32,000 bases of DNA from Archaeoglobus fulgidus DSM 4304 (lineage in GTDB: Archaea > Halobacteriota > Archaeoglobi > Archaeoglobales > Archaeoglobaceae), in assembly GCF_000008665.1 (NCBI RefSeq), contig NC_000917.1, positions 1 through 32,000 on the forward strand. Reading direction: 5' to 3'. The notes below the pieces were generated by a model, which did not search any database, was not told the origin of the DNA, and was given only the letters and a program-made list of their open reading frames with translations. Positions within the stretch are counted from its first letter, which is position 1. Each line of letters starts with the position of its first letter. Positions 5,051 through 32,000 of the stretch are shown here, one piece after another. The position numbers and the translations under genes were made by a program.

Positions 5051-6811
5051 ATGCCCCTCAGAATTGCAGTTGTGGACAGAGAACGCTGCCAGCCGAAGAA
5101 GTGCGGACAGGAGTGCGTGAAATACTGTCCTCGCGTCAGAACGGGAGACGAGACGGTAAAGATAGAAGACAAGGCCGTCATATCCGAGAATCTCTGCGTT
5201 GGATGCGGAATATGCGTCAAGAAGTGCCCGATGCACGCCATCTGGATTGTTGGTCTGCCAGAGGAGCTTGAGGGCAGGGAGGTGCACCGCTACGGCAAGA
5301 ACGGCTTCGTCCTCTACAACCTCCCCGTTCCGAGAAAGGGCTATGTGGTCGGAATTCTAGGCCCAAACGGGACGGGAAAGAGCACGGCAATCAAAATCCT
5401 TTCGGGGCAGCTCAAGCCCAACCTTGGGAAGGAGGAGGCAAGCTGGGAAGAGATATTTGACAGGTTTGCTGGAACAGAGCTTCTGGACTATCTGAAGGGG
5501 ATAAAGGAGGGGGCAATAAGAGTTAGCCAGAAACCGCAGTACATCGAAGCTATCCCTAAGGTTTACAGCGGTAAGGCGATTGAGCTGCTGAAGAGAGTTG
5601 ACGAGAGAGGGATGCTCGATGCTGTGGTTGAAAAGCTCGGCCTTGCGGAGGCAATAAAGAGAGATGTGAAGGATTTGAGCGGCGGAGAGCTTCAGAGGCT
5701 TGCTATAGCAGCCTGCATCCTCAGGGATGCAGACTTCTACTTCTTCGACGAGGTTACGAGCTACCTCGACATATACCAGCGCATTGCCGTTGCGGGAGTG
5801 ATAAGGGAGCTTGCTGCTGAAAAGACTGTTATGATAGTGGAGCACGACCTCGCCATCCTGGACATGCTTGCCGACTTCGTCCACATCACCTACGGTACTC
5901 CGGGCGTTTTTGGTGTCGTCACCAACGCGAAGGGAGCGAGAGTTGGCATAAACCAGTATCTGAGGGGCTATCTGGCTGAGGAGAACATCAGAATAAGGGA
6001 CAAGCCCATCGAGTTCGAGGTTTTCCAGCCGAGGGAAAGTGTGGGGGAGAATATCCTTGTTGAATATCCATCCTTCACCAAATCCTACGAGGGCTTCAGG
6101 CTTGAAGTTGAGGGGGGAGAGATTTATCAGGGAGAGGTTTTGGGAGTTGTAGGTTCAAACGCAACAGGCAAATCAACCTTCGTGAAGGTTCTTGCGGGAG
6201 TAATTGAGGATGACGAGAAGAAGGTTGAGCTGGATGTTAAGGTCAGCTACAAGCCCCAGTATGTTAAGGCTGATGTAAACATGCAGGTTGGGATGTTTCT
6301 GCGAAGAATAAACCCCATGATTGACAGCTCCTACTACAAAACCGAGTTTCTCAAGCCCCTGATGCTGGAAAACCTCATGGACCGCTACCTAGACGATTTG
6401 AGCGGGGGAGAGTTGCAGAGAGTCGCCATCGTCGCCTGCTTGCTGAGGGAAGCTGACCTCTACCTCCTTGACGAGCCCTCAGCCCACCTCGACGTGGAGC
6501 AGAGGACTGAGGCTGCGAGGGTCATAAGGAGGTTTGCACTAAACACGGGCAAGAGCGTTCTGGTTGTTGACCACGACATCTACCTCATTGACATGGTGAG
6601 TGACAGGTTGCTGGTCTTCGAGGGGCAGCCGGGAAAGCACGGCATAGCGAGAAGGCCGAGGGGAATGAGGGAGGGAATGAACCTCTTTCTATCGAAGCTG
6701 GGCATAACCTTCAGGAGAGACGAGGAGACAAAGAGGCCGAGAGTCAACAAGCCCGATTCGAGGCTGGACAGGGAGCAGAAGGCTGCTGGGGAGTATTACT
6801 ACTATTTCTGA
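5051..6811 (+). CDS. abcE1: ABCE1 / RNase L inhibitor homolog (ribosome-recycling ATPase)
   Basis: N-terminal di-cluster ferredoxin domain (CQPKKCGQECVKYCP; CVGCGICVKKCP). Two ABC cassettes with Walker A motifs GPNGTGKST and GSNATGKST, and two LSGGELQR signatures. Confidence 0.95.
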   Translation: MPLRIAVVDRERCQPKKCGQECVKYCPRVRTGDETVKIEDKAVISENLCVGCGICVKKCPMHAIWIVGLPEELEGREVHRYGKNGFVLYNLPVPRKGYVVGILGPNGTGKSTAIKILSGQLKPNLGKEEASWEEIFDRFAGTELLDYLKGIKEGAIRVSQKPQYIEAIPKVYSGKAIELLKRVDERGMLDAVVEKLGLAEAIKRDVKDLSGGELQRLAIAACILRDADFYFFDEVTSYLDIYQRIAVAGVIRELAAEKTVMIVEHDLAILDMLADFVHITYGTPGVFGVVTNAKGARVGINQYLRGYLAEENIRIRDKPIEFEVFQPRESVGENILVEYPSFTKSYEGFRLEVEGGEIYQGEVLGVVGSNATGKSTFVKVLAGVIEDDEKKVELDVKVSYKPQYVKADVNMQVGMFLRRINPMIDSSYYKTEFLKPLMLENLMDRYLDDLSGGELQRVAIVACLLREADLYLLDEPSAHLDVEQRTEAARVIRRFALNTGKSVLVVDHDIYLIDMVSDRLLVFEGQPGKHGIARRPRGMREGMNLFLSKLGITFRRDEETKRPRVNKPDSRLDREQKAAGEYYYYF

Positions 6812-6849
6812 ATCAGAAAATCTTATAAGGATTGTCAAAAATTTTTTAC

Positions 6850-7443
6850 ATGAAACTTTTCCACAGAATCACCATCTCCCTCTCGGAAGACGACATGAAG
6901 CTCATCGAGGAGCTGAGGAGAGATAGCGGCGACAGCCTGAGCAAGATTTTCAGGGAGGCGATTCAGCTTTACTACAACCTGCTTAAGGCTTCGAAGGCTG
7001 CAGGGGTGGATTTCAGAAAGTATTTCGCAAACGCAACACGCCTTGCCTTTCACATTAACGGAGTTGAGCAGAAGCAGTTTGCGGTCATAGACAGGGAAAT
7101 TTACAGAGTTATGCTGAAAAAGCTTCAGGAGAAGGTGCCGCCTGAGAGCATTGAAAGCGATGAGGAGTTCAGGTCTGCCGTTGCCGGGGTGGTGAAGCTT
7201 TTCGAGATTACGAGGGACAGGTGGAGTGAGTACACGGACGAGCAGAAGCTTGAGGAAATACTCACAACTATGGAGTTTGCCGGAGCCGGCACATTTGCCA
7301 GAGTGGGAGATAAAGAGTACATCTTCAACACCTATGCTGAGTCAACGGCCATAACCAAGCTTATAATTTCGTCGGTTTTGGCTTCCGCAGGCTTAAAGGT
7401 CGAGATAGACCACACTCCCGGCAAGATTTTCATAAGACTTTAG
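6850..7443 (+). CDS. Ribbon-helix-helix (CopG/Arc-like) transcriptional regulator with an uncharacterised C-terminal domain
   Basis: The N-terminus RITISLSEDDMKLIEELRRDSGDSLSKIFREAIQLYY fits a beta-strand/helix/helix RHH pattern. The start is moved to ATG 6850 (the ORF track uses TTG 6832). A TATA-like 'cttataag' at 6822-6829 lies about 25 nt upstream, which fits a leaderless mRNA. Confidence 0.6.
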   Translation: MKLFHRITISLSEDDMKLIEELRRDSGDSLSKIFREAIQLYYNLLKASKAAGVDFRKYFANATRLAFHINGVEQKQFAVIDREIYRVMLKKLQEKVPPESIESDEEFRSAVAGVVKLFEITRDRWSEYTDEQKLEEILTTMEFAGAGTFARVGDKEYIFNTYAESTAITKLIISSVLASAGLKVEIDHTPGKIFIRL

Positions 7444-7481
7444 CCAAATCAAGTTATTTTAATCAAAAGTCAGATAATTTT

Positions 7482-7516
7482 GTTATGAACTGATTCATAA
7501 CAGCTTTTATCTTTAG
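7482..7516 (+). promoter_or_regulatory. Palindromic operator (GTTATGAA-N4-TTCATAAC) fused to a TATA-like box, upstream of corrinoid protein gene 1
   Basis: Perfect 8-bp inverted repeat at 7482-7489 / 7494-7501, followed by CAGC and 'ttttatcttta' (7505-7515). SD GGAGGTG at 7536-7542, ATG at 7548. Nearly the same 35-nt element recurs at 9445-9477. Confidence 0.55.
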
Positions 7517-7547
7517 AAGGCCTATTTTCTAATTTGGAGGTGTTTAG

Positions 7548-8180
7548 ATGGCGGATGTTAGAAAGGAGTTCGTTCAGGCCTTGGCAGACCTCGACGAGGC
7601 AAAGACCGTAGAGCTGACAAAGAAGAGAGTTGAGAGCGGAGAGGATCCATTCACCATTCTTGAGGACGTCAGAAAGGCTACGGACATCATTGGAAAGCGC
7701 TTTGAGGAGGGAAGGTACTTCGTCTCAGACCTGATAATGGCGGGAGAAATTCTCAAGCAGGTAATGGAAATCCTAAGACCGCTGCTGGGAGAGAAGAAGG
7801 CTGAAAGCAAGGGAAAGGTCGTAATAGGAACAGTTGAAGGAGACGTCCACGACATAGGCAAGAACATTGTCATTGCGCTGCTTGAGGCTGAGGGCTTTGA
7901 AGTTGTTGATATAGGTGTTGACCAGCCCCCTGAAGCCTTTGTTGAGGCTGCAAATCAGCACAATCCGGATGTTGTTGGTCTCTCAGGCCTGCTTACCGAA
8001 GCTATAGAGAGCATGAAGAGGACGGTTGAGGCCTTAAGAAAAGCTGGCTACAAGGGCAAGATAATCATAGGAGGAGGAAGGACGAGCGAGGAGGCAAAGG
8101 AGTACACGGGAGCAGATGACTGGGCGGACGATGCCGCTGTCGGTGTGAGGAAGATCAAGGCTCTTGTGGGGGTGGAGTAG
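7548..8180 (+). CDS. mtoC: Cobalamin-binding corrinoid protein, copy 1 (MtaC/MtoC-type)
   Basis: B12-binding signature DxHxxG (GDVHDIGKNIV), followed by SGLL and IIGGG, after an N-terminal helical cap domain. The symbol is given by analogy to the Mto O-demethylase system. Confidence 0.9.
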   Translation: MADVRKEFVQALADLDEAKTVELTKKRVESGEDPFTILEDVRKATDIIGKRFEEGRYFVSDLIMAGEILKQVMEILRPLLGEKKAESKGKVVIGTVEGDVHDIGKNIVIALLEAEGFEVVDIGVDQPPEAFVEAANQHNPDVVGLSGLLTEAIESMKRTVEALRKAGYKGKIIIGGGRTSEEAKEYTGADDWADDAAVGVRKIKALVGVE

Positions 8181-8257
8181 ATGAACGCTGAGCAGCTCAT
8201 GGAGGAGAGAAGGCAGAGAATTGAGGACGTGGTAAAGGGGAAGGAGCCTGATAGGGT
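7566..8257 (+). repeat. Duplicated block A, copy 1 (partner 13511-14202, offset 5945 bp), about 98% identical
   Basis: Hand alignment found about 15 mismatches in 692 bp and no indels. The block covers almost all of the corrinoid protein gene plus the first 77 nt of the downstream methyltransferase gene. Confidence 0.9.
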
Positions 8258-9434
8258 TCCAGTGACGGGTGCAACGACCGTCTGGCATGGAAGCTACGCT
8301 GGCTACACAGCCAAAGAGGTTCTCTTCGACTACGAAAAGTGCAAGGACGCATGGCTCAAGGTTGCAAAAGATTTCGACTTCGACTCATTCACCGTCGTTG
8401 GCGGCTTGGAGGGGATGATATACACCGTTGCGTTGCTTGAGCAGCCAGACATGTCTGCAGCAGCAAGATTCATCCTCGGCCCCACTCACCTCGTCTTGCA
8501 GGATGTGTACACCAGATGGCCGGGATACGAGCTCGAAGAAAACGCCCATCCGCAGTTCATCGGCAAGGAGATAATGAAGGTTGAGGAGTACGACCAGCTA
8601 ATCGAAAACCCGCTTGAGTTCATAAACAAGGTAGCGATGCCGAGGATAAACAGAAAGCTCGCCAACGTTGGATCTGCAGAATACAACGCAGCACTTGCGA
8701 AGTATGGGGCTGAGCTGGCAAGATTCGGTGCGTTCATGGCCGATGTTTCGATGGAGCTCGCCAAGCTCGGCTATCCAACAATTCCCATGTCCTGGGCCTA
8801 CGCCCCCCTCGACCTCATCAGCGACTTTCTGAGGGACATAAAGAACATGGTCATGGACCTCTACCGCTATCCCGACAAGGTCAAGGAGGCTGTTGAAGCG
8901 GTAAAACCCCTCATAATCAAAGCGGCCGAAGTATCAGCTCCTCCAAAAGAAATCAGAAAGCAGGTCTTCGGCACTGACGTTGTGGAGTGCTTCTACCCGC
9001 TCCACCTGAACGAGTATCTGAGTCCGAAGCTGTACAACGAGTTCTACTGGCCCTACCTCAACGAGGTTCTTCACAAGGTTGCCGACATGGGACAGGTGAA
9101 CTTCGTGCTCTTTGAGGGCAGACACGATGCACACCTCGAAACGCTGTTAGAAGCTCCGAAGAAGAAGGTCGTCGGAGTTTTCGAGAAAACAGACCCAAGA
9201 AAGGTGAGAGAGGTTCTGGGAGACCACGTAATCCTCGTCTCAGGGCCTCCGAACTCTCTGCTGATAGGAGGCACACCGCAGAAGGTGGAGGAGTACATGA
9301 AGAGCCTTCTGGAGGACTGCAAGGAAGGCGGAATGATGATATGGCCGGGAGTTGATGGAGGTATTTCGAGGGATGCAAGGCCTGAGAATGTAAAGGCTGT
9401 GATCGAAGCCGTGAAGAAGTACGGAACTTACTAA
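8181..9434 (+). CDS. mtoB: UroD-fold (MtaA/CmuA superfamily) methyltransferase, copy 1; candidate aryl-methyl-ether:corrinoid O-demethylase
   Basis: The start ATG abuts the corrinoid gene stop codon. The length (417 aa) and the ...SPKLYNEFYWPYLNEVL...VLFEGRHDAH... region resemble the uroporphyrinogen-decarboxylase-like methyltransferase fold. Genomic pairing with a corrinoid protein supports the call. The symbol is by analogy. Confidence 0.75.
   Translation: MNAEQLMEERRQRIEDVVKGKEPDRVPVTGATTVWHGSYAGYTAKEVLFDYEKCKDAWLKVAKDFDFDSFTVVGGLEGMIYTVALLEQPDMSAAARFILGPTHLVLQDVYTRWPGYELEENAHPQFIGKEIMKVEEYDQLIENPLEFINKVAMPRINRKLANVGSAEYNAALAKYGAELARFGAFMADVSMELAKLGYPTIPMSWAYAPLDLISDFLRDIKNMVMDLYRYPDKVKEAVEAVKPLIIKAAEVSAPPKEIRKQVFGTDVVECFYPLHLNEYLSPKLYNEFYWPYLNEVLHKVADMGQVNFVLFEGRHDAHLETLLEAPKKKVVGVFEKTDPRKVREVLGDHVILVSGPPNSLLIGGTPQKVEEYMKSLLEDCKEGGMMIWPGVDGGISRDARPENVKAVIEAVKKYGTY
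8988..9434 (+). repeat. Duplicated block B, copy 1 (partner 14930-15376, offset 5942 bp), about 93% identical
   Basis: Hand alignment found about 32 mismatches in 447 bp, mostly at third-codon positions. The block covers the C-terminal ~148 codons of both UroD-fold genes. Confidence 0.85.
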
Positions 9435-9440
9435 TTTTTT
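9435..9440 (+). terminator. Oligo-T tract immediately after the mtoB-1 stop codon
   Basis: T6 directly follows TAA (9432-9434). Archaeal termination commonly uses oligo-T. A new promoter-like element follows within 10 nt. Confidence 0.35.
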
Positions 9441-9444
9441 CTTA

Positions 9445-9477
9445 TTTATGAACCAGTTCATAACAGCCTTTATTTAG
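9445..9477 (+). promoter_or_regulatory. Second copy of the palindromic operator (TTATGAAC-N2-GTTCATAA) plus TATA-like box, upstream of MFS transporter 1
   Basis: tttatgaaccagttcataacagcctttatttag compared with gttatgaactgattcataacagcttttatctttag at 7482-7516. Half-sites, the CAGC linker and the TTTAT box are the same. The distance to the start codon is also similar (about 62 versus 65 nt). Confidence 0.55.
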
Positions 9478-9507
9478 CACTCATCTCTGCTTAAGAGGGG
9501 ATTCGCG

Positions 9508-10770
9508 GTGGTAGAGCGAAGGCTGGTGTATCCGGTTTCAGCAGCAATACTGGCGATGTTTGCAATGTTCTCCCTCATCTGGAGCCAGTTCTACCCCTTC
9601 ATAATGAAAACCTATTCGCTGGATGCAGTTTCTCCCGTTGCTCTTGCAGCGTCCTTCTCCGCTGCTGGAAACCTTCTGACACAGGTTCTGGCAGGTTTCA
9701 TCGCAGACAGGCGCGGACCGAAGCCCACAATGGCTGTTGCAGGATTGCTCTACCTCGCAGGAACAACGATAATCTCCATGATGTTCTCCCACGCGTCCTG
9801 GGAGAATGCGAGGCTCTACTGGTATGCGGGGGCCCTCACAATAGGTGCCGGAATAGGGATGTACATCGGTACTCTTCCGGTGGTTATAAGCAGGTGGTAT
9901 CCTGACGCTCCGGGAAAAGCTTACGGTATCGCCCTCTTCGGGCAGTACCTTTCTCCAGTTCTCATTTCGCCTCTTGCGGCCTACCTCATAACCAGCTACG
10001 GGCTGAAAGAGGCCTTCACTTTTCTTGGAGCTGCGATTTTCACAGTGATTTACATAATCGGTGTTGGAGTGTGGAGAACCCCGCCCAGAGAGATGGCAGC
10101 CACCTTCGCCAACGGTGGAAAGACCGTTTCCCTCAAGGAGTCAATAAGGGATTTAAGATTCTGGATTCTTTTCACTGTAATGTTCTCCACGGCTATCGGA
10201 TGGTTTCTGATTATGATGAACATCGCAACTATAGTTGTGGAGGGGCTCGGAAAGGCAGGTCTGGATGTTGAGTACGTTGCCTCATCCTTCGTTCCGCTTT
10301 TCATGTCCGTAGCGGCGGTTGGAAACGCCCTTGGGGCTTACTTCTGGGGAGTTGTGAACGACAGGATGGGCGGGCCGCTGAGAACGCTCCCAATCGTTTA
10401 CGCTCTCGCGGGAGTGATGATCTTTGCTTTTTACCTCAGCTACACCAGCCCCTCGCTCATTCTTCTGACGGGATGCCTGCTTTACTTCTCGCTCGCTGGG
10501 GAGCCTACAGTCCACTTTGCCGCTGTCCCGACCTTCTTCGGGAACGAGCACGTTGCAAAGCTAACCTCAATCCTTAACACTTCCGTGGCCTCTTCGGCCA
10601 TAATCGGGCCGTTCATCGGTGCATTCATCAGAGATGTTTTAGGGTCATACTTCTTTTCGCTTGCAATTGCGGCAGTACTTCACTTCTTTGCTGTCGGCAT
10701 TGTGTTGGCTGGAAGAAAATACGCAGGAGGTGGTGTTAATGTTCAGGTTCGAGAACCAGAAGGTGTTTGA
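9508..10770 (+). CDS. MFS transporter 1 (12-TM type, OFA-like)
   Basis: Highly hydrophobic 420-aa product. MFS loop motif GFIADRRGPK. GTG start. Confidence 0.85.
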   Translation: MVERRLVYPVSAAILAMFAMFSLIWSQFYPFIMKTYSLDAVSPVALAASFSAAGNLLTQVLAGFIADRRGPKPTMAVAGLLYLAGTTIISMMFSHASWENARLYWYAGALTIGAGIGMYIGTLPVVISRWYPDAPGKAYGIALFGQYLSPVLISPLAAYLITSYGLKEAFTFLGAAIFTVIYIIGVGVWRTPPREMAATFANGGKTVSLKESIRDLRFWILFTVMFSTAIGWFLIMMNIATIVVEGLGKAGLDVEYVASSFVPLFMSVAAVGNALGAYFWGVVNDRMGGPLRTLPIVYALAGVMIFAFYLSYTSPSLILLTGCLLYFSLAGEPTVHFAAVPTFFGNEHVAKLTSILNTSVASSAIIGPFIGAFIRDVLGSYFFSLAIAAVLHFFAVGIVLAGRKYAGGGVNVQVREPEGV

Positions 10771-11611
10771 GATAGGAGGAGTAAAAATAGGCGGAGAGGT
10801 TGGAGAGAATCCGACGGTGCTGATTGGAAGCATCTTTTACGGAAAGCACAAAATCGTAGAGGACGAGAAGAGGGGAATATTTGACAGAGAGGGGGCTGAG
10901 GCGCTAATCAGGGAAATGGAGGATCTGAGCGACAAAACAGGCAATCCGGGATTGCTTGATGTTGTGGGGATGAGCGAGGAGGCGATGATAAAGTACATCG
11001 ACTTCGTTGCTGACGTCACCGACAGCCCCTTCCTCATCGATTCTGCCATCGCGGACATAAAGCTCGCAGGAGTTAAGCATGCAGATGAGGTGGGGCTTTC
11101 CGACAGGGTAATCTACAACTCAATCTCGCCCGAATCGAAAGACGCCGAGATAGAAGCGCTTGCTAACAGCAAAGTTGAAGCGGCAGTGGTGCTCGCATAC
11201 ACCTACAACGTTATCAGCAGCGCTGCAAGGCTTCAGGCTCTGGAAAAGGCCATGGCGAAGGTTGAAAAGGCGGGGATAACCAAGCCAATCGTTGACACGT
11301 TTGTAATGGACGTTCCGAGCCTTCCCGCTGCGGCGAAGGCGGCAATTGACATAAAGAGGAAATACGGGCTTCCAACGGGCTCCGGTGCGCACAACGCGAT
11401 AGGAAGCTGGAAAGGATTTAAGAACATGTTCGGGAAGGAGGCGGAGAAGGCGGCGACAATCGTTGCTGTTACGATGCAGATCATCCTCGGCTCGGACTTC
11501 GTGCTCTACGGCCCAATTGAGGACTGCAGAGAGGTGTTCCCGGCGATGTACACAATAGACACAGCATACAAGTACTTCAGGCGCACGAAGGACTGGATAG
11601 AGATGGTCTGA
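10739..11611 (+). CDS. mtoA: MtrH-family methyl-corrinoid:pterin (H4MPT/H4F) methyltransferase
   Basis: MFRFENQKVFEIGGVKIGGEVGENPTVLIGSIFY is the typical MtrH-domain N-terminus. The start is moved to ATG 10739, with SD GGAGGTG at 10727-10733. The ORF-track N-terminal extension is a hydrophobic read-through of the MFS gene. The gene overlaps the MFS 3' end by 32 nt. Confidence 0.85.
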   Translation: MFRFENQKVFEIGGVKIGGEVGENPTVLIGSIFYGKHKIVEDEKRGIFDREGAEALIREMEDLSDKTGNPGLLDVVGMSEEAMIKYIDFVADVTDSPFLIDSAIADIKLAGVKHADEVGLSDRVIYNSISPESKDAEIEALANSKVEAAVVLAYTYNVISSAARLQALEKAMAKVEKAGITKPIVDTFVMDVPSLPAAAKAAIDIKRKYGLPTGSGAHNAIGSWKGFKNMFGKEAEKAATIVAVTMQIILGSDFVLYGPIEDCREVFPAMYTIDTAYKYFRRTKDWIEMV

Positions 11612-11612
11612 A

Positions 11613-13406
11613 ATGGTGTCGGTGACCTTCGAGCCGGTCGGAAAGAAGGTTGAGGATGAGCCGGACACAATACTCGAAATAGCGAGGAGGAACGGAGTTC
11701 TCATCAGGTCCGACTGCGGAGGCAAGGGAGTTTGCGGGAAGTGCAAGGTTGTCGTGGTTGACTACAGGGGAAGTTTGAGCGATATTACCGATCATGAGAG
11801 AAAGCACCTGATCGAGGAGGAGATAAGCAAAGGATACAGGCTTGCCTGTCAGGCGAGGGTTGAGGAGGGCAGGGCGACGATTTTCATACCACCGGAAAGC
11901 AGGCTCGAAAGGAGGAAGGTTGCGGGGCTTACGATAGAAAAAGAAGTCGAGCTGAATCCTGCGGTCAGAAAGGTTTACGCGGAAATTCAGCCTCCGAGCA
12001 TTGAAGACCAGCTTCCCGACTACGACAGGTTGACGAGGGCTCTGGGAGACTTCAGCCTCGATTTGGAAACGCTATCCGAAATGCCGAAGCTTTTGAGGGA
12101 GGCTGAGTGGAGGGTAACGGCCACCTTCTGGAATGGCAGACTCATTGACCTTGAGAAGGGAGACGTTAGCGACAGGTGTTACGGCGTGGCCGTTGACGTC
12201 GGATCGTCCAAAATCATCTGCCACCTCGTCGATTTGAAGAGCGGTGAGACCATCGCAACTGGCTACTCCGACAATCCGCAGGTTGCGTACGGAGAGGACA
12301 TAGTTTCGAGAATAACCTACGCCTCGAAGTCCGCTGAAAACAGAAAGAGGCTCCAGACGGTTGTCGTTGAGACCGTGAACCAGATAATAGCTGAGCTCTG
12401 CAACGAAAGCGGTGTTGACTTACGGCACGTTTACGAGGTGATGATTGTTGGCAACTCCGTGATGCACCACCTGTTTTTCGGCATCGAACCGAGGTTCATC
12501 GGTGTCTCTCCCTTCACTCCCGCCGTCAGGAGGGGTGTGAGCTTTCCAGCAGAAGATGTTGGGCTGAGAATCAACAGGAAGGGATACGTGAGCTCACTGC
12601 CTCTCGTAGCGGGATTTGTCGGTGCGGATGCGGTTGCAAACATTGCCATAACAGGAATACACAAAGCTGAGGAGATTTCGATGGTTATCGACATCGGAAC
12701 GAACACCGAGATTGTCATCGGCAACAGAGAGAAGCTTGGTGTGTGCTCTGCCCCTTCTGGTCCAGCTTTTGAGGGAGCCCACATCACCTTCGGCATGAAG
12801 GCCATTAGCGGGGCGATAGACAGCGTGAGAATTGAGAGGGATGAGGTCATATACACCACCATCGACAACGCCAAGGCGAAGGGGCTGTGCGGAACGGGGC
12901 TTATCGACCTCATCGCAGAGCTCTACAGGAACGGAATAATCAACAGAAACGGCAAATTCGTAAAGGACCACAGCAGAATAATCGTTGATGGGGTTCCTAA
13001 GTTCGTCGTTGCCAAGGCGGAAGAGACTGAGTTCGGAAAGCCGATAACGGTGAGCGAGAAGGACATAAACGAGCTTCTGATGGCCAAAGGGGCGATAAAG
13101 TCGGGATGGATGATTCTTTCGGAAAGGTTGGGGATTGAGCCCGACAAAATCGAGAGAATTTACCTTGCCGGATCCTTCGGAAGGCACATTAACGTCGAAA
13201 ATGCGAAGGTCATCGGGTTGCTGCCCGACATACCTTCGGAGAAGATAACCTTCGCCGGCGACACGGCAGTTGGCGGAGCGAAGATGGCTCTGAAATCGGT
13301 CAGAGTGAGGGATGAGATGGAAGACGTTGTCAGCAGGCTGAATTACGTAGAGCTTTCGGTTGAGAAGAACTTTTACAGCGTTTTTGTTCGTGCAATACCA
13401 ATTTAA
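11613..13406 (+). CDS. mtoD: RACo-type ATP-dependent reductive activator of corrinoid proteins (2Fe-2S ferredoxin + ASKHA/DUF4445 domain)
   Basis: N-terminal plant-type ferredoxin motif CGGKGVCGKCKV...ACQARV. A large C-terminal part has ASKHA-like glycine motifs (VDVGSSKI, IDIGTNTE, GSFG). It starts 1 nt after the mtoA stop codon. Confidence 0.85.
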   Translation: MVSVTFEPVGKKVEDEPDTILEIARRNGVLIRSDCGGKGVCGKCKVVVVDYRGSLSDITDHERKHLIEEEISKGYRLACQARVEEGRATIFIPPESRLERRKVAGLTIEKEVELNPAVRKVYAEIQPPSIEDQLPDYDRLTRALGDFSLDLETLSEMPKLLREAEWRVTATFWNGRLIDLEKGDVSDRCYGVAVDVGSSKIICHLVDLKSGETIATGYSDNPQVAYGEDIVSRITYASKSAENRKRLQTVVVETVNQIIAELCNESGVDLRHVYEVMIVGNSVMHHLFFGIEPRFIGVSPFTPAVRRGVSFPAEDVGLRINRKGYVSSLPLVAGFVGADAVANIAITGIHKAEEISMVIDIGTNTEIVIGNREKLGVCSAPSGPAFEGAHITFGMKAISGAIDSVRIERDEVIYTTIDNAKAKGLCGTGLIDLIAELYRNGIINRNGKFVKDHSRIIVDGVPKFVVAKAEETEFGKPITVSEKDINELLMAKGAIKSGWMILSERLGIEPDKIERIYLAGSFGRHINVENAKVIGLLPDIPSEKITFAGDTAVGGAKMALKSVRVRDEMEDVVSRLNYVELSVEKNFYSVFVRAIPI

Positions 13407-13504
13407 TGTCAAATTTGTTTTACATCAAATCATTTATTTTTTTGAGTCAATTAACCTTAATAGAGTCATTTTTCATCTTCTCCAAGCTTCACGGAGGTGA
13501 TACC

Positions 13505-14125
13505 TTGGAAGAGTTCGTTCAGGCCTTGGCAGACCTCGACGAGGCAAAGACCGTAGATCTGACAAAGAAGAGAGTTGATAGCGGAGAGGATCCATTCACC
13601 ATTCTTGAGGACGTCAGAAAGGCAACTGACATCATTGGAAAGCGCTTTGAGGAGGGAAGGTACTTCGTCTCAGACCTGATAATGGCGGGAGAAATTCTCA
13701 AGCAGGTAATGGAAATCCTAAGACCGCTGCTGGGAGAGAAGAAGGCTGAAAGCAAGGGAAAGGTTGTGATAGGCTCGGTGGAGGGTGATGTCCACGACAT
13801 AGGCAAGAACATTGTCATTGCGCTGCTTGAGGCTGAGGGCTTTGAAGTTGTTGATATAGGTGTTGACCAGCCCCCTGAAGCCTTTGTTGAGGCTGCAAAT
13901 CAGCACAATCCGGATGTTGTTGGTCTCTCAGGCCTGCTTACCGAAGCTATAGAGAGCATGAAGAGGACGGTTGAGGCCTTAAGAAAAGCTGGCTACAAGG
14001 GCAAGATAATCATAGGCGGTGGAAGGACGAGCGAGGAGGCAAAGGAGTACACGGGAGCAGATGACTGGGCGGACGATGCCGCTGTCGGTGTGAGGAAGAT
14101 CAAGGCTCTTGTGGGGGTGGAGTAG
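13505..14125 (+). CDS. mtoC: Cobalamin-binding corrinoid protein, copy 2
   Basis: Only 3 aa differ from copy 1 over the ~204 aligned aa. Same DxHxxG motif. The start is reassigned to TTG 13505, with SD GGAGGTGA at 13493-13500. The ORF-track start at 13406 adds an AT-rich, Phe/Ile/Ser-rich extension that has no counterpart in copy 1. Confidence 0.85.
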   Translation: MEEFVQALADLDEAKTVDLTKKRVDSGEDPFTILEDVRKATDIIGKRFEEGRYFVSDLIMAGEILKQVMEILRPLLGEKKAESKGKVVIGSVEGDVHDIGKNIVIALLEAEGFEVVDIGVDQPPEAFVEAANQHNPDVVGLSGLLTEAIESMKRTVEALRKAGYKGKIIIGGGRTSEEAKEYTGADDWADDAAVGVRKIKALVGVE

Positions 14126-14202
14126 ATGAACGCTGAGCAGCTCATGGAGGAGAGAAGGCAGAGAATTGAGGACGTGGTAAAGGGGAAGGAGCCTGATAGG
14201 GT
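13511..14202 (+). repeat. Duplicated block A, copy 2 (partner 7566-8257)
   Basis: See copy 1. Identity ends abruptly after gatagggt (8257 / 14202). Confidence 0.9.
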
Positions 14203-15376
14203 GCCAATATACGCTTCCACTTCTCTGCTTTTTCACGTAAGGTACGCTGGCTACAAGGCGAAAGAGGCTCTGTTCGACTACGGAAAGTTCAAGGAGAGTG
14301 TTATAAAGACGGCAAAAGACTTCGACTTCGACATTATGAGGGCTTCATACGGCCTTGAGGGCATACTCTTCGTTCTTGCCTTCCACAACGCTCCGGAAAT
14401 AGCCAAAGGTATGAGGTTTCTCACCGCCCACTACCACAAAATTCTTGGCGACGTTTACACCAAGTGGCCGGGAATGGAGCTCAGCGACGACGCGCATCCG
14501 CAGTTCATTGGAAAGCCCGTCATGAACGTTGACGAATACGATGCATTTACAGAAAATCCGCTTGAGTTCATAAACGAGGTTGCCCTTCCGAGAGCCTGTC
14601 AGAACATGAAAAGCGCCGCTGACAGAAACGCGGTGATAGCGAGGCTTGGAGCGGAGGTTGTTAGATACACAAACACCATACAGGAGCTGGGAAGGGAGCT
14701 TGCAGAGCTTGGCTATCCTTCTTTCGCCACATCCTGGAGCTACGCTCCGCTCGACCTCATCGGCGATTATCTGAGGGATATCAAAAACGTGGCCATCGAC
14801 CTTTACAGAGTTCCAGAGAAGGTTAAATCCGCCACAGAGGCCGTAACGCCGCTTTTCATCGAGATGGCGGAGAGGACGGGCATGCCGCCAAAGGTGGCAA
14901 GAGAAATCTTCGGCAGCGATGTCGTGCTCTGCTTCTACCCCCTCCACCTCACCGAGTACCTGAATCCGAAGCTGTACAACGAGTACTACTGGCCCTACCT
15001 CAACGAGGTTCTTCACAAGGTTGCCGATATGGGGCAGGTGAACTTCGTGCTCTTTGAGGGCAGACACGATGCGCACCTCGAAACGCTGTTAGAAGCTCCA
15101 AAGAAGAAGGTCGTTGGAGTTTTCGAGAAAACCGACCCAAGAAAGGTGAGAGAGGTTCTCGGAGACCACGTAATCCTCGTGTCAGGTCCTCCGAACTCTC
15201 TGCTGATAGGAGGCACACCTCAGAAGGTGGAGGAGTACATGAAGAGCCTTCTGGAGGACTGCAAGGAGGGCGGGATGATGGTCTATCCGGGTGTGGACGG
15301 AGGTATTTCGAGGGACGCAAGGCCTGAGAACGTTAAGGCTGTGATCGAAGCCGTGAAGAAGTACGGAAGGTACTGA
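14126..15376 (+). CDS. mtoB: UroD-fold methyltransferase, copy 2 (mosaic paralog of 8181-9434)
   Basis: The first 27 aa are identical to copy 1. Roughly residues 28-270 are only about half identical. The last ~148 aa are nearly identical. Confidence 0.75.
   Translation: MNAEQLMEERRQRIEDVVKGKEPDRVPIYASTSLLFHVRYAGYKAKEALFDYGKFKESVIKTAKDFDFDIMRASYGLEGILFVLAFHNAPEIAKGMRFLTAHYHKILGDVYTKWPGMELSDDAHPQFIGKPVMNVDEYDAFTENPLEFINEVALPRACQNMKSAADRNAVIARLGAEVVRYTNTIQELGRELAELGYPSFATSWSYAPLDLIGDYLRDIKNVAIDLYRVPEKVKSATEAVTPLFIEMAERTGMPPKVAREIFGSDVVLCFYPLHLTEYLNPKLYNEYYWPYLNEVLHKVADMGQVNFVLFEGRHDAHLETLLEAPKKKVVGVFEKTDPRKVREVLGDHVILVSGPPNSLLIGGTPQKVEEYMKSLLEDCKEGGMMVYPGVDGGISRDARPENVKAVIEAVKKYGRY
14930..15376 (+). 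repeat. Duplicated block B, copy 2 (partner 8988-9434)
   Basis: See copy 1. Confidence 0.85.
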
Positions 15377-15395
15377 AGCTGTTGGAGGTGAAACA

Positions 15396-16595
15396 ATGGG
15401 TGAAAATTCGAAGTTTCTTCCCTGGATGGTTGCAACTGGAGCGATGCTGGCTTTCACGGTGAGGTGGCTGCACTATCTCTATTCCTTCACCGCTCCGCAG
15501 ATTATGGACGAGTTCGGTGTTCCTGCTGCGACCGCCTCGCTGATGGTTACCGCGAACTCCATAGGTATGGTTGTTGGAGGGTTTTTGATAGGCGTTCTCT
15601 GCGACAAAATAGGTGTGAGGGTAACTCTGAGCATTGCCGCAGTTGTGGTGGGTGTTTTCACGATTTTCGTCGGTTACGCCCAGAGCATATACATGGCCAT
15701 TGTGATGTTCGGAATTGCGGGGCTTTTCTCCTGGCTTAGCTCCGCATTTCCGAAAATTGCGAGAGCTTGGTTCCCGCCTTCGCTGTATTCCACCGCAAAC
15801 AGCTACATGTTTCTCGGCTTCAGGCTGTCGGCTCTGTTCATGGGGCCTGTGGTTGCATCAATAGTAATCACAAGCGGATGGAGGAGCGCCTGGATTGACA
15901 TGGGTATTCTGTGCATTCTGATGGGTGTTCTCGCCTTTGCGCTCATAAGGGACAAGAAGGATGTCCAGGTTGAGCAGAGCAAAGTTTCGGTAGGGGAGGT
16001 TTTCAAATACAGGGACGCGTGGATTCTCTTCGGAGCCTACTCGATGTGGCTTATAGGCTGCGTCATGTACGTGGTCTTCACCATAACCTACCTGCAGAAG
16101 GGACTTCAGCTCGACCCGATGACATCGGGCTGGCTCTGGAGCCTGCTTCAGCTCGTCGGAATAATCTCCATGTACACCCTGCTGCCCCTCTCCGACCTGC
16201 TCGCTTCCAAGGGCATAATCAGCAGAAAGAACTTTGCGGGGATAATGTTCCTTGTGGCATCCGTGGCGTTCTTCATCTTTGGATCGCTGAAGCCCGGAAT
16301 GCCGATAACCTACTACGCAGCTTCCATCGTGCTGGTGGGGCTTGGAGCGCTGCTATTAACCACGATACCAGCACCGCTTATTTCCGAGCGCTTCCCGCCG
16401 AACATCGCAGGAACGGCTACGGGCTTCATAACAGCAGTTGGGCAGTGGCCCTTCATAGTGATGCCGCCCATCGCGGGAATGCTTGCAGCCACCTACGGAT
16501 GGGGCTTCATCTACCAGGTTTCGGCTCCCTTCATAGCCATAGGCGGGATGATTCTGATACTCCTCATGAAGCCCCCGCAGAAGGTCTCAGCTTAA
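15396..16595 (+). CDS. MFS transporter 2
   Basis: Hydrophobic 399-aa product with SD GGAGGTGA 4 nt before the ATG. It shares the AWFPP loop motif and N-terminal pattern with the MFS gene at 28539-29720. Confidence 0.85.
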   Translation: MGENSKFLPWMVATGAMLAFTVRWLHYLYSFTAPQIMDEFGVPAATASLMVTANSIGMVVGGFLIGVLCDKIGVRVTLSIAAVVVGVFTIFVGYAQSIYMAIVMFGIAGLFSWLSSAFPKIARAWFPPSLYSTANSYMFLGFRLSALFMGPVVASIVITSGWRSAWIDMGILCILMGVLAFALIRDKKDVQVEQSKVSVGEVFKYRDAWILFGAYSMWLIGCVMYVVFTITYLQKGLQLDPMTSGWLWSLLQLVGIISMYTLLPLSDLLASKGIISRKNFAGIMFLVASVAFFIFGSLKPGMPITYYAASIVLVGLGALLLTTIPAPLISERFPPNIAGTATGFITAVGQWPFIVMPPIAGMLAATYGWGFIYQVSAPFIAIGGMILILLMKPPQKVSA

Positions 16596-16618
16596 TCACG
16601 ACAAATCATTTTATAAAA

Positions 16619-16626
16619 TTTTTTTT
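16619..16626 (+). terminator. Oligo-T (T8) tract after MFS transporter 2
   Basis: A T8 run lies 24 nt after the stop codon, in a very AT-rich intergenic region. Confidence 0.35.
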
Positions 16627-16690
16627 AATTAACTTTTTGTTGTTAATTAATTATTTATCAGGATATTTTTTCTGAACAAATGGTGGTTGT

Positions 16691-17104
16691 ATGGAGGCGA
16701 GGGATTCGGTAATCTATTTGCAGACGGCCATTGTGGGAGCGATGCTTTTCGCGGCGTTTGCGAACAGCTGGAGAGCTTTTCTGTACCTCGCTGCTGTGAA
16801 CATCTCTCTTTGGCTGTTTCTCGGACTCTATCGAGAGGACAGGGCGAGGTTTGCGGCGGTGTTCAGTCTGATCGTTCTGGCAATCATGCTCGTAGGAAAG
16901 ACGCTGATTCTTTACTACTACGACGTTTACTACGGCAGCATTCCAGAGTTCGTGGCCGGAATGCATCCGGGGATGTTCGTGATGGTGGTGATGTTCTTCG
17001 TGCTCTACATAGTACCAGTGGGATACGCTCTGTTCTTCGACAGGATTCTGCCGGAGGACGACTGGAAGAAATTCGTTGAAAGGTATCGGTACGAGGAGGG
17101 GTAG
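16691..17104 (+). CDS. Small 4-TM membrane protein, translationally coupled to the downstream symporter
   Basis: Four hydrophobic segments. The stop TAG (17102-17104) lies 1 nt before the symporter ATG. I prefer it over the two overlapping ORFs (16687-17079 + and 16658-17191 -), whose products are Arg/Gly/His-rich and non-protein-like. I recognise no family. Confidence 0.55.
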   Translation: MEARDSVIYLQTAIVGAMLFAAFANSWRAFLYLAAVNISLWLFLGLYREDRARFAAVFSLIVLAIMLVGKTLILYYYDVYYGSIPEFVAGMHPGMFVMVVMFFVLYIVPVGYALFFDRILPEDDWKKFVERYRYEEG

Positions 17105-17105
17105 A

Positions 17106-18581
17106 ATGGCGGACACGATTACGGTTTCGATAGTTCTGGCATACTTCGTCGTAACGCTTGCCCTCGGATTCTTTGCTGCGAGAAAAATCAAAACGGCGGA
17201 GCACTACTACGGTGCGAGAAAGCTCTTCGGGATGTTCGTCACAGCCGTTGCGGTTTTCTCAGGAATTGCGAGTGCGTTCACCTTCATCGGCGGTCCGGGA
17301 CTGGTTTATCCCATGGGCGGGACGGTCAACTGGGTGATATGGACTCCGGTAATCTCCATGCCGCTGATATGGTACCTGCTTGGCAAGAGAATCAAGCTGA
17401 TAACCGAAGCGAGGCCGGTGGCAACTCTCCCGGACTTAACTGCAGCGAGATTCAAAAGCGATGCTGTGAGGTTCCTAACAGCCGTCGCCCTGATTTTCGG
17501 CATAATCACCTACCTCGCCGGAAACGTGATGGGCGCGGGTCTTGTCCTAACAGACATGCTCGGAACTCCGCTTGAGCTTTCGATTGCCATTGTTTTCGGC
17601 ATAATAATGCTCTACACGGCCTTCGGAGGAATGGTCGCGAGCATTCTGACGGACTTCTTTCAGGGGCTCGTGATGATGGTTGCTGCCATTATCTTCGTGG
17701 TCTTCATCCTGATCATGACGGGTGGGGTGGAGAACCTCTTTGCAACCATAGCTGAGAGCAATCCGAGACACATCGACCCGATTGGAGTCGGCCCGATATG
17801 GCTGGGAATCATGGGATGGTGGTGGGCCCTCAACATCGGCTCATCTGTCCAGCCCCATGCAGTGACGAAGTTCTTCGCTCTGAAGGACTACAGAGACCTG
17901 AAGTGGGGAGCGCTCGTTACGACAATAGCATGGACACTCGCCTGCCTCATGTGGTTCTTCGGCGGCTACGCTTCCGTCTGGGTCGTGATAAAGGGGCTTG
18001 CAGAAGCTCCGGCGAGAAGTGATCAGGCGATTTTCGGAGTTATCGCCCAGATGCCCGTCGTTCTCAAAGCCGTAATCTACGCCGGCGTCCTTGCTGCGAT
18101 AATGTCAACGGTGAGCGGCTTCATATCCATGGGCACTGCAGCAGTTGTGAGAGACATCCCGACGGCGATAGGAAAATCGCTGAGCCAGAGGGGGCAGATT
18201 CTCTGGGGTAGAGTCGTGACCGTGATTCTCACCGTTGTGGCGGCGCTTTTCGGCTACTACGGCGGCTACGTTGTGGGCATACTCGTAACGCTGGGTCTCG
18301 GCTACTTCGCATCTATGCTCTTCCCGCTGCTGGTGATAGGTCTTAACTGGAAGAGGGCAACGAAGGAGGCTGCGATAATCACAACCGCCCTGACAGTTGC
18401 GATGAACCTTGGATTTCTGGTTTATGAGAAGGTCCTGAGCATGTCTCTGCCCTACGGACTGCCGGGATACGGTGTAACCTTTGCTGTCGGGATAATTACG
18501 ATGGTTCTGGTCTCGTTAATCACGAAAGGCGCTGCACTCGATGACATGGATGAGGACATAAGGGCTGCAATGAGCCTTTAA
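17106..18581 (+). CDS. Sodium:solute symporter (SSS family) transporter
   Basis: The ~490-aa polytopic protein has an SSS-like N-terminus (ILAYFVVTLALGFFAARKIKTAEHYYGARK). The start is moved to ATG 17106, with GGAGG upstream. Confidence 0.8.
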   Translation: MADTITVSIVLAYFVVTLALGFFAARKIKTAEHYYGARKLFGMFVTAVAVFSGIASAFTFIGGPGLVYPMGGTVNWVIWTPVISMPLIWYLLGKRIKLITEARPVATLPDLTAARFKSDAVRFLTAVALIFGIITYLAGNVMGAGLVLTDMLGTPLELSIAIVFGIIMLYTAFGGMVASILTDFFQGLVMMVAAIIFVVFILIMTGGVENLFATIAESNPRHIDPIGVGPIWLGIMGWWWALNIGSSVQPHAVTKFFALKDYRDLKWGALVTTIAWTLACLMWFFGGYASVWVVIKGLAEAPARSDQAIFGVIAQMPVVLKAVIYAGVLAAIMSTVSGFISMGTAAVVRDIPTAIGKSLSQRGQILWGRVVTVILTVVAALFGYYGGYVVGILVTLGLGYFASMLFPLLVIGLNWKRATKEAAIITTALTVAMNLGFLVYEKVLSMSLPYGLPGYGVTFAVGIITMVLVSLITKGAALDDMDEDIRAAMSL

Positions 18582-18635: not shown

Positions 18636-19283
18636 ATGGAGTCTTTTGAAAAGCTCCCCTGGCCGTATGAAAGGCTTGACCCGCAAAAAATTGCGGACAG
18701 GGCATACGAGAGCGCTTTTGAAGGATACTGCATGTATGGTCTTGTGAACGCCGTCGTCGAGGGGCTTTCGGAGAGTGTCGGTGAGCCTTGGAAGAGCTTC
18801 CCATCGAAAGTTACCTTCTACGGGCGTGGGGGAGTTATAGGATGGGGGTCAACCTGCGGACCGCTGAACGGAGCCGCGTTGATCAGCTACCTTGTTCTTG
18901 AGCAGACGGATGCTGATGAGGTGATAAACGAGCTCTACATGTGGTACTCCACCACACCGCTGCCCAGCTACACTCCGAAGGAGGCTCTGATTCTCGACAT
19001 TGAGAACAGGCCCGTAATCTCCGCCGCTCCGCTCTGCTACACCAGGTCGATGAACTTCAGCCTAAATACCGGCTACAAGGTTCTCTCGCCAGAGTTCTTC
19101 GAGCTTGAGAACAGGGTTGTTGCCGATGTGGCGAAAAAATTCGTAGAACTCCTTAACGCAAAGTTCGACGGCTCTTTCAGGCTAAGCTTTGAGGTTACGG
19201 AGCTGAAAGGCTCTGCGAACGTTTTGAGGGCTGCGGAGTTCGTAATGTACCGCTCCCTCCCTCAGCTTGAGATTCCGAAGTAG
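18636..19283 (+). CDS. C_GCAxxG_C_C-family putative redox protein
   Basis: Pattern GYCMYGLVNAV ... GRGGVIGWGSTCGPLNGAALI ... PLCYTRSM resembles the C / GCAxxG / C / C arrangement of that family. TATA-like 'ttattaaaaa' about 23 nt upstream of the ATG suggests it is the first gene of its own, possibly leaderless, transcription unit. Confidence 0.5.
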   Translation: MESFEKLPWPYERLDPQKIADRAYESAFEGYCMYGLVNAVVEGLSESVGEPWKSFPSKVTFYGRGGVIGWGSTCGPLNGAALISYLVLEQTDADEVINELYMWYSTTPLPSYTPKEALILDIENRPVISAAPLCYTRSMNFSLNTGYKVLSPEFFELENRVVADVAKKFVELLNAKFDGSFRLSFEVTELKGSANVLRAAEFVMYRSLPQLEIPK

Positions 19284-19286
19284 GAG

Positions 19287-21272: not shown

Positions 21273-21276
21273 GATT

Positions 21277-22470: not shown

Positions 22471-22474
22471 TAGG

Positions 22475-22957: not shown

Positions 22958-22959
22958 CA

Positions 22960-24222: not shown

Positions 24223-24260
24223 GGAAAACTTCTTAAATTTTGCACCACAATCTTTTGTTT

Positions 24261-27281: not shown

Positions 27282-27283
27282 AC

Positions 27284-28525: not shown

Positions 28526-28538
28526 ACACAACACCTCC

Positions 28539-30811: not shown

Positions 30812-32000
<1,189 letters not shown>

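Follow-up and report, generated by a model that had tools for sequence, protein, structure and literature searches.

The Mto methoxydotrophy locus of Archaeoglobus fulgidus: two cassettes, mosaic duplicate genes and operator-like palindromes

The transfer of methyl groups from methoxylated aromatics via a corrinoid protein has been described in archaea for the Mto system of Methermicoccus shengliensis, in which, in vitro, MtoD with ATP and Ti(III) reduces MtoC to Co(I), MtoB with a methoxy-aromatic generates methyl-Co(III), and MtoA demethylates methyl-Co(III) onto a pterin (PMC8630106; Kurth et al. 2021, ISME J). Bacterial three- and four-component O-demethylases (MtvABC of Moorella thermoacetica, Odm and Vdm of Acetobacterium dehalogenans, and those of Desulfitobacterium) follow the same logic, i.e. 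they combine a UroD-fold methyltransferase I (MT1) with a corrinoid protein, a methyltransferase II (MT2) and a RACo-like activator, and a single genome encodes several MT1 paralogues of differing substrate range. The bacterial MT2 usually belongs to another pterin-binding family, acting on tetrahydrofolate. Here we describe a stretch of 32,000 nucleotides from Archaeoglobus fulgidus DSM 4304 (NC_000917.1, positions 1 to 32,000; the whole of it is called the window). Its region 7548-16595 is the already published Mto methoxydotrophy locus, AF_0006 to AF_0013; the full explanation given below, including two cassettes and their operators, is very probably right.

Growth of A. fulgidus on methoxylated aromatics has been published together with names for the eight genes, i.e. 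MtoC, MtoB, MFS, MtoA, MtoD, MtoC2, MtoB2 and MFS (PMC8359953; Welte et al. 2021, Environ Microbiol). MtoC2 and MtoB2 were named there without analysis of either, and the paper discusses neither the mosaic pattern of the duplicated genes nor separate origins of the two cassettes, nor the ribbon-helix-helix (RHH) gene AF_0005 or an operator. The identity and function of the locus are already known, and their recognition from the sequence is a correct rediscovery. What is new beyond the publication is a set of modest observations, namely the apparent concerted evolution of the two cassettes, their apparently separate origins and a conserved RHH/operator unit. An earlier note on this DNA, made from the letters without database searches, had mentioned an Mto system in M. 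shengliensis and later in A. fulgidus, from around 2021; both publications agree with it.

The A. fulgidus locus has all five protein types in common with that of M. shengliensis (PMC8630106), and both carry the RHH gene upstream and the operator-plus-TATA unit before mtoC, with a second such unit after mtoB. Identities between the two organisms are 82% for MtoC, 83% for MtoB, 76% for MtoA and 67% for MtoD, and in both of them two MT1s are served by one MT2 and one activase. The earlier note had regarded two MT1 modules on one back end as under-explored, but this is already the pattern of M. shengliensis (mtoC-mtoB1-mtoB2-mtoA-mtoD). That locus differs in that its single mtoC precedes a pair of adjacent mtoB genes and that MatE plus another MFS gene lie downstream; its methyl groups end in methane, whereas in A. 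fulgidus they yield CO2 with sulfate. In contrast to the bacterial systems, the A. fulgidus MT2 is of the MtrH type, with tetrahydromethanopterin as its presumed acceptor. The closest solved structure to MtoB is the TIM barrel of the chloromethane dehalogenase CdmBCA of A. dehalogenans (PDB 9rui; PMC13222342), but CdmB acts on haloalkanes, not on methoxy-aromatics, and is only ~31% identical to MtoB.

Eight co-directional open reading frames (ORFs), all with assigned Pfam domains, occupy the region:
7548-8180, plus strand: mtoC1 (AF_0006), corrinoid protein, 210 aa; B12-binding_2 and B12-binding; exact match AAB91221
8181-9434, plus strand: mtoB1 (AF_0007), UroD-fold methyltransferase I (aryl methyl ether:corrinoid O-demethylase), 417 aa; URO-D
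9508-10770, plus strand: MFS1 (AF_0008), MFS_1; resembles the oxalate/formate-antiporter and lactate-transporter families, NCBIfam matches below cut-off
10739-11611, plus strand: mtoA (AF_0009), MtrH-family methyltransferase II (methyl-corrinoid:pterin), 290 aa; MtrH PF02007, E 9e-133
11613-13406, plus strand: mtoD (AF_0010), RACo-type ATP-dependent reductive activase, [2Fe-2S] plus ASKHA; Fer2, RACo_linker, Raco_middle and RACo_C_ter
13505-14125, plus strand: mtoC2 (AF_0011), second corrinoid protein gene, 206 aa; B12-binding_2 and B12-binding
14126-15376, plus strand: mtoB2 (AF_0012), second UroD-fold methyltransferase I, 416 aa; URO-D
15396-16595, plus strand: MFS2 (AF_0013), MFS_1; resembles the D-galactonate (anion:cation symporter) family

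An exact-sequence look-up matched all eight proteins to DSM 4304 entries (AAB91217-AAB91225), in agreement with the sulfate-reducing host without methanogenesis that the earlier note had supposed, and A. fulgidus DSM 8774 encodes the same eight proteins under consecutive accessions (AIG96850-57). The same gene order was found in more than 12 further archaeal genomes and is therefore not a product of chance. The note had this order and the domains right but counted nine genes (its own list also holds eight) and placed the start of the cluster at 7482, where a palindrome of the mtoC1 promoter begins rather than a gene. The Pfam searches it had proposed matched all five protein types (B12-binding, URO-D, MtrH, Fer2/RACo and MFS_1), and its description of a complete three-component O-demethylase agrees with these domains, with the published Mto cluster and with the M. 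shengliensis MtoB.

Both MtoC translations carry the DxHxxG motif (GDVHDIG) and match PF02607 and PF02310; the closest PDB entry to MtoC1 is 4jgi (E 2e-45). MtoB1 is ~83% identical to M. shengliensis MtoB2 (BP07_RS03250), and its alignment with CdmB covers residues 8-417 (E 4e-62). The AlphaFold model of MtoB1 (predicted local distance difference test, pLDDT, 97) is a TIM barrel of UroD fold, and a Foldseek comparison of this model with the PDB returned only UroD and MtaA folds, the structure set predating the CdmB entries. A 2026 phylogeny placed MtoB with MtvB, OdmB, VdmB and CdmB (PMC13222342). Two other identities for MtoB were rejected, i.e. the coenzyme M methyltransferases MtaA/MtbA (MtaA/CmuA and MtaA models: TIGR01463 34 bits, cut-off 235; NF040654 27.5 bits, cut-off 400; PRK06252 53 bits, cut-off 244) and HemE (TIGR01464 35 bits, cut-off 303; UroD entries of the PDB align with the C-terminal half only, E ~1e-6). 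The earlier note had reckoned with a clustering of the UroD-fold proteins among coenzyme M methyltransferases; the identity to M. shengliensis MtoB2 and the scores of the MtaA models, far below their cut-offs, show otherwise.

MtoA scores 417 bits with NF002142 (soluble MtrH family, cut-off 287) and matches PDB entries 8z9u_B (E 9e-146) and 6sj8, the methylcorrinoid:tetrahydrofolate methyltransferase of D. hafniense; no mtrA-G genes adjoin mtoA among the window ORFs scanned. MtoD matches RACo (3zyy, E 5e-117). No NCBIfam model reached its cut-off for MtoB, MtoC, MtoD, MFS1 or MFS2. The mechanically called mtoA ORF begins at TTG 10661, and ATG 10739 gives the 290 aa of RefSeq; mtoC2 probably starts, judging from the sequence, at TTG 13505 after the ribosome-binding site GGAGGTGA, giving 206 aa as in WP_048064581, while the original annotation used ATG 13406 (239 aa). 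Start codons also differ more widely between annotations (RHH protein 203/197 aa, MtoA 316/293/290 aa, MtoC2 239/206 aa).

In the proposed pathway, the UroD-fold MtoB would transfer the methyl group of an aryl methyl ether to Co(I) of the corrinoid protein MtoC, and the soluble MtrH-family MtoA would pass it to tetrahydromethanopterin, the likely acceptor in A. fulgidus. Oxidation of the methyl group via the reverse acetyl-CoA pathway would follow, the electrons going to sulfate. Co(II) would be returned to Co(I) with ATP by MtoD, a RACo-type [2Fe-2S]/ASKHA protein, and the MFS proteins would move substrate or product.

The two mtoC-mtoB pairs are mosaics, in which near-identical ends enclose a divergent core:
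7566-8257, plus strand: 5' homogenised tract, mtoC and the first 26 mtoB codons; partner 13511-14202, 15 mismatches in 692 nt
9023-9434, plus strand: 3' homogenised tract, approximately the last 132 mtoB codons (beta5-beta8); partner ~14965-15376, 94% nucleotide identity

From positions 7566/13511 the two mtoC genes are 97.5% identical in nucleotide sequence, with three residue differences beyond the N-terminus, and the high mtoC-mtoB identity ends abruptly at 8258. MtoB2 and MtoB1 are 70% identical overall but only 53% in the core (codons 27-285). Synonymous divergence (dS) is 0.09 for mtoC1/mtoC2, 0.07 for mtoB codons 1-26, 1.5 for the core (nonsynonymous divergence, dN, 0.38; dN/dS ~0.25) and 0.26 for codons 286-417. 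Since dS steps 6- to 20-fold between segments, constraint at the protein level is insufficient to explain the pattern. Identical runs of 227, 182 and 137 nt occur, against a maximum of 68 in 2000 column shuffles. In a tree of the core, MtoB2 groups with the cassette-2 MtoB of another Archaeoglobales lineage and a metagenomic relative (bootstrap 100), in a clade outside the MtoB1/Jordarchaeales/Methanomicrobiales group. In a tree of the C-terminal segment it stands beside the MtoB1 of its own genome, inside the Archaeoglobus MtoB1 group. In different A. fulgidus strains, residues typical of one paralogue turn up in the other (MtoB1 and MtoB2 types; sites 292/297, 387/388 and 416). We infer from these data that recurrent gene conversion keeps mtoC and both mtoB ends nearly identical between the cassettes.

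The near-identical mtoC copies therefore supply what amounts to a single corrinoid protein species that suits the one MtoA and the one MtoD, and what sets the two front ends apart is only the MtoB core and the transporter. The earlier note had seen two substrate-side modules, each with its own transporter, on one MT2 and one activase; the layout holds, but not the independence of the pairs, given the near identity of MtoC and of the MtoB ends. Functionally, A. fulgidus would thus resemble M. shengliensis, in that two MT1s work with a single corrinoid protein species (from two genes in this case), a single MT2 and a single activase. The two adjacent mtoB genes of M. shengliensis have no homogenised ends (C-segment identity 61%, dS saturated). 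The A. fulgidus transporters are of unrelated MFS families, and their identity of 21% ruled out the MFS genes as part of the duplication. Within mtoC, 7820-7844 and 13765-13789 contain nine mismatches in 25 nt, eight of them synonymous, immediately ahead of the DxHxxG motif; either this small patch escaped conversion or a third source contributed a short tract here.

Similar signs occur in metagenome-assembled genomes (MAGs). Two Archaeoglobales MAGs with non-adjacent cassettes have a within-genome C-segment dS of 0.39-0.59, whereas between-genome orthologues are saturated. Pairs of MAG contigs (designated here by L numbers) begin alike, namely L011 1-127 with L021 1-127 and L013 1-55 with L022 1-55, as well as L006 1-88, and the shared sequence comprises the 3' end of mtoC and the first mtoB codons. 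The assemblies break at the duplicated mtoC and probably collapse it, and MAGs may understate the number of Mto genes.

To place the cassettes in context, contigs encoding homologues were looked up and one genome per species was scanned, the A. fulgidus and M. shengliensis contexts being taken from exact-protein look-ups. Cassette 1 is complete (RHH-mtoC-mtoB-MFS1-mtoA-mtoD). It occurs alone in about a dozen Archaeoglobales MAGs (L002, L007 and others), where MFS1 is kept at 52-63% identity, and in Jordarchaeales, as well as in M. shengliensis with an extra mtoB and MFS1 cut down to a 55-residue remnant. Cassette 2 is incomplete (mtoC-mtoB2-MFS2). In L001, L021 and L022 a cassette mtoC-mtoB2like-MFS2, with MFS2 orthologues 87% identical, is followed by genes for a C_GCAxxG protein, a FadB-type protein, a thiolase, a DUF35-type OB-fold protein and a family III CoA-transferase, which is the gene order at 18636-24222 of the window. 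The cassettes are not adjacent in other Archaeoglobales, since ribosomal protein genes lie upstream of cassette 2 in L001, and mtoD is without a following mtoC in L011 and L013. From this it follows that the A. fulgidus "supercluster" is derived; the comparison suggests a juxtaposition of two cassettes, the second of which appears to retain its ancestral place beside beta-oxidation-type genes.

Several further observations concern these cassettes. An inserted sodium:solute symporter gene (17076-18581), which follows a 137-aa hydrophobic ORF (16691-17104), occurs in A. fulgidus alone. Published induction fades across the genes downstream of cassette 2, with log2 fold changes of 3.3, 2.6, 1.8 and 1.4. 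The MtoB2 core (14204-14977) is only 60% identical between A. fulgidus and the JZ/JAVYNT lineage (L021, L001), while in the same comparison MFS2 reaches 87%, the thiolase 93%, the FadB-type protein 83% and the MtoB1 core 83%. Because it is far less conserved than its neighbours and the MtoB1 core, the MtoB2 core would be either unusually fast-evolving or replaced. In M. shengliensis, a small ORF between mtoB2 and mtoA (L004, 11330-11497), preceded by the conserved second operator, is 73% identical to residues 3-55 of A. fulgidus MFS1 and looks like a remnant of an MFS1 gene lost from that cassette. M. shengliensis MtoB2 (L004, 10001-11254) nests within the Archaeoglobales MtoB1 clade of the core tree, and the two-operator layout is common to this organism and A. 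fulgidus; these features suggest transfer of cassette 1 between Archaeoglobales and Methermicoccus.

The strands of the MtoB1 model barrel (28-32, 69-72, 203-205, 269-274, 306-311, 330-334, 351-354 and 385-387) place the divergent core at beta1-beta4, with the long insertions between them, and the homogenised tail at beta5-beta8. In CdmB, extensions between the first three strands form the dimer interface and a substrate tunnel with poorly conserved residues, and the Rossmann domain of the corrinoid protein was modelled entering the central cavity (PMC13222342). By analogy, the MtoB core may set the substrate range and the conserved part may serve cobalamin and MtoC docking. As the N-terminal two thirds of the barrel differ, MtoB1 and MtoB2 probably differ in substrate range. 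At ~31% identity to the best PDB match, and with tunnel residues variable even among CdmB homologues, the specificity itself is unreadable from sequence. The MtoB2 core is under purifying selection, because its dN/dS is ~0.25; MtoB2 also retains all 19 family-invariant residues. Among 5.8 billion proteins its core has no relative of more than 59% identity outside A. fulgidus.

The putative regulatory elements of the locus, with promoters read by comparative alignment, are as follows:
6850-7443, plus strand: AF_0005, RHH (CopG-type) protein, 197 aa, putative cluster regulator; Pfam RHH_1 at residues 6-43; start in the ORF list TTG 6832
7482-7501, no strand assigned: palindrome O1, GTTATGAACTGATTCATAAC; TATA-like TTTAT at 7506-7510; 65 nt upstream of the mtoC1 start
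9445-9464, no strand assigned: palindrome O2, TTTATGAACCAGTTCATAAC; TTTAT at 9469-9473; 62 nt upstream of MFS1; preceded by a T6 run at 9435-9440
16596-16675, plus strand: probable end of the transcription unit, AT-rich with several oligo-T runs, read from the sequence

O1 and O2 are the only matches to GTTATGAA-N4-TTCATAAC in the 32 kb, against 0.01 expected, and each is followed after 4-5 nt by TTTAT. The consensus of the operator-plus-TATA unit is tTT-GTTATGAAc-N3-TTCaTAAc-Aa-N2-TTTAT. This unit lies 58-65 nt before mtoC in 12 related loci of Archaeoglobales, Jordarchaeales and M. shengliensis (the copy in L012 has an indel), and is present at the stand-alone cassette 2 of L001. The second operator after mtoB was found only in A. 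fulgidus and M. shengliensis (L004, 11265). No palindrome precedes A. fulgidus mtoC2, the mtoD-mtoC2 spacer being a T-rich stretch of 98 nt. A homologue of AF_0005 lies directly upstream of mtoC in the Archaeoglobales, Jordarchaeales and M. shengliensis loci, and an RHH gene stands beside cassette 1 in most loci; the family has six representatives among 1.84 billion proteins. The AF_0005 protein probably controls both palindrome units. Sub-threshold matches of AF_0005 to an H-NOX-like fold (E 0.2-1) were not used. The literature searched contains a "transcriptional regulator" box in a figure only, and no operator.

The earlier note had counted a lack of induction by methoxylated compounds against its assignment; growth on 2-methoxyphenol raises the expression of each of the eight genes 12- to 60-fold over that on lactate (log2 fold change 3.6-5.9; PMC8359953). 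The published log2 fold changes, with reads per kilobase per million mapped reads (RPKM) on 2-methoxyphenol (PMC8359953), are:
AF_0006: 5.7; RPKM 13461
AF_0007: 5.9; RPKM 4719
AF_0008: 5.1; RPKM 314
AF_0009: 4.5; RPKM 1061
AF_0010: 4.0; RPKM 862
AF_0011: 4.0; RPKM 309
AF_0012: 3.6; RPKM 113
AF_0013: 4.0; RPKM 28.5

RPKM falls further, from 28.5 (AF_0013) to 5.3 (AF_0015) (PMC8359953). Because of these steps, the lack of a cassette-2 palindrome and the T6 run after mtoB1, we propose that a very strong unit, P1, would drive mtoC1-mtoB1 and a weaker one, P2, MFS1-mtoA-mtoD, while cassette 2 would be expressed by decaying read-through from P2, with transcription ending in the oligo-T stretch 16596-16675. 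A bacterial-type promoter/terminator scan of 6800-17200 gave no more sites than shuffles and is uninformative for an archaeon.

Several points weigh against parts of this explanation. The supports in the C-terminal-segment tree are low (22-45), which 132 well-conserved residues would lead one to expect. The C-terminal third of the MtoB family is conserved at 75-90% protein identity, compared with ~50% for the core, and part of the C-terminal similarity is therefore ordinary constraint. The role of the beta5-beta8 half as the MtoC docking surface is something we only infer. Likewise, binding of the palindromes by AF_0005 is a prediction; the C-terminal ~150 aa of this protein gave no Pfam or fold match and no PDB match at E<1e-3, and its model (pLDDT 66) was built from seven sequences only. 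As for expression, the published 150-nt single-end reads were mapped at 95% similarity, and identical runs between mtoC1 and mtoC2 reach 227 nt, so that a read from a homogenised tract cannot be attributed to one copy or the other. Cassette 1 is 40-fold more abundant, and its reads may account for the value given for AF_0011 and for some of that given for AF_0012. Unambiguous read mapping is limited to AF_0013 and the mtoB2 core, both of which are weakly expressed on 2-methoxyphenol. The published expression of MtoC2 and MtoB2 is thus uncertain, since AF_0006 shares reads with AF_0011, as do the ends of AF_0007 and AF_0012. Finally, the literature searched yielded no assay of either AF_0007 or AF_0012, the enzyme steps established in vitro being those of M. 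shengliensis proteins only.

The mosaic could also have arisen by a recent tandem duplication of mtoC-mtoB, with the central mtoB segment later replaced by a foreign allele. Sharp boundaries (e.g. at 8258), near-identical flanks and a core without a close database relative, which leaves room for an unsampled donor, would fit such a history. Nevertheless, we consider it unlikely: the MtoB2 core groups with cassette-2 MtoB of other Archaeoglobales (bootstrap 100) that is syntenic beside MFS2 and the FadB gene, and is therefore the resident orthologous part, while it is the C-terminal tract that is nested among Archaeoglobus MtoB1 sequences. Moreover, two other lineages with non-adjacent cassettes have the same lowered flank dS and shared contig ends, and the MFS genes are not duplicated.

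The role of cassette 2 admits two further views, for each of which we see little chance. One takes mtoC2-mtoB2-MFS2 for a redundant or decaying spare, methoxydotrophy needing cassette 1 only; its transcripts on 2-methoxyphenol are indeed ~1-2% of those of mtoC1/mtoB1, part of them possibly mis-mapped, and it lacks its own operator in A. fulgidus. Against such decay, however, all three ORFs are intact, the selection on the MtoB2 core and its full set of invariant residues have been described above, at least three Archaeoglobales assemblies have the cassette at the same position in the chromosome, with an MFS2 of 87% identity, and the uniquely mapping AF_0013 is induced 16-fold. In the other, MtoB2 would be an MT1 that delivers methyl groups from a different donor, such as a halomethane, a methylthio compound or an aliphatic ether, to the shared MtoC/MtoA/MtoD back end. 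The activity of CdmB, the closest solved relative of MtoB, on chloromethane and not on methoxy-aromatics, despite the position of that enzyme in the tree, is in favour of this idea, as are the deep separate clade of the MtoB2 core, with no relative above 59% identity outside A. fulgidus, and the membership of MFS2 in a transporter family other than that of MFS1. Yet the core is 50-60% identical to MtoB proteins, compared with 31% between MtoB and CdmB; M. shengliensis also has two MtoBs, 57% similar and both up-regulated on methoxy-aromatics (PMC8630106); and cassette 2 is co-induced by 2-methoxyphenol.

A joint reading may tentatively be offered, which we hold to be possible, if less likely than not to be right in full. 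Conversion may keep one MtoC species and the MtoC-facing half of MtoB compatible with the single MtoA/MtoD, while the tunnel half of MtoB2, as a specificity slot, is free to diverge. Cassette 2 may handle side-chain methoxylated aromatic acids, e.g. phenylpropanoids, because it is syntenic with the FadB, thiolase, DUF35-type OB-fold and family III CoA-transferase genes. The RHH family and the GTTATGAA-N4-TTCATAAC operator over the transcription factor B recognition element (BRE) and TATA box may form a methoxy-aromatic-responsive switch common to Archaeoglobales, Methermicoccus and Jordarchaeales.

The remainder of the window contains other features. A CRISPR array (148-4213) comprises 60 identical 30-nt repeats (GTTGAAATCAGACCAAAATGGGATTGAAAG) with spacers of ~36-44 nt, which accounts for the low G+C content (~41%) of the first 4.2 kb and for the absence of long ORFs there. 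A PAS/HATPase kinase was rejected as a conserved mto partner, since the window copy (24240-25232) is only 28% identical to that of L002. Minus-strand genes for an aldehyde:ferredoxin oxidoreductase, an Fe-alcohol dehydrogenase and a third MFS protein are followed by a TrmB-like regulator gene and by a gene for a SepSecS-family pyridoxal phosphate enzyme that is cut by the window end (25503-29720, minus strand; 30082-30732; 31091-31996, minus strand).

The new details merit the attention of specialists, although they leave the nature of the system unchanged. MtoB1 and MtoB2, with matching ends and divergent cores, are ready-made chimeras for mapping the specificity of corrinoid MT1s, and the RHH protein with its operator provides a concrete, testable route to archaeal sensing of methoxylated aromatics. 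As was established in 2021, it is this cluster that enables a sulfate-reducing hyperthermophile without methanogenesis to live on methoxy groups derived from lignin.

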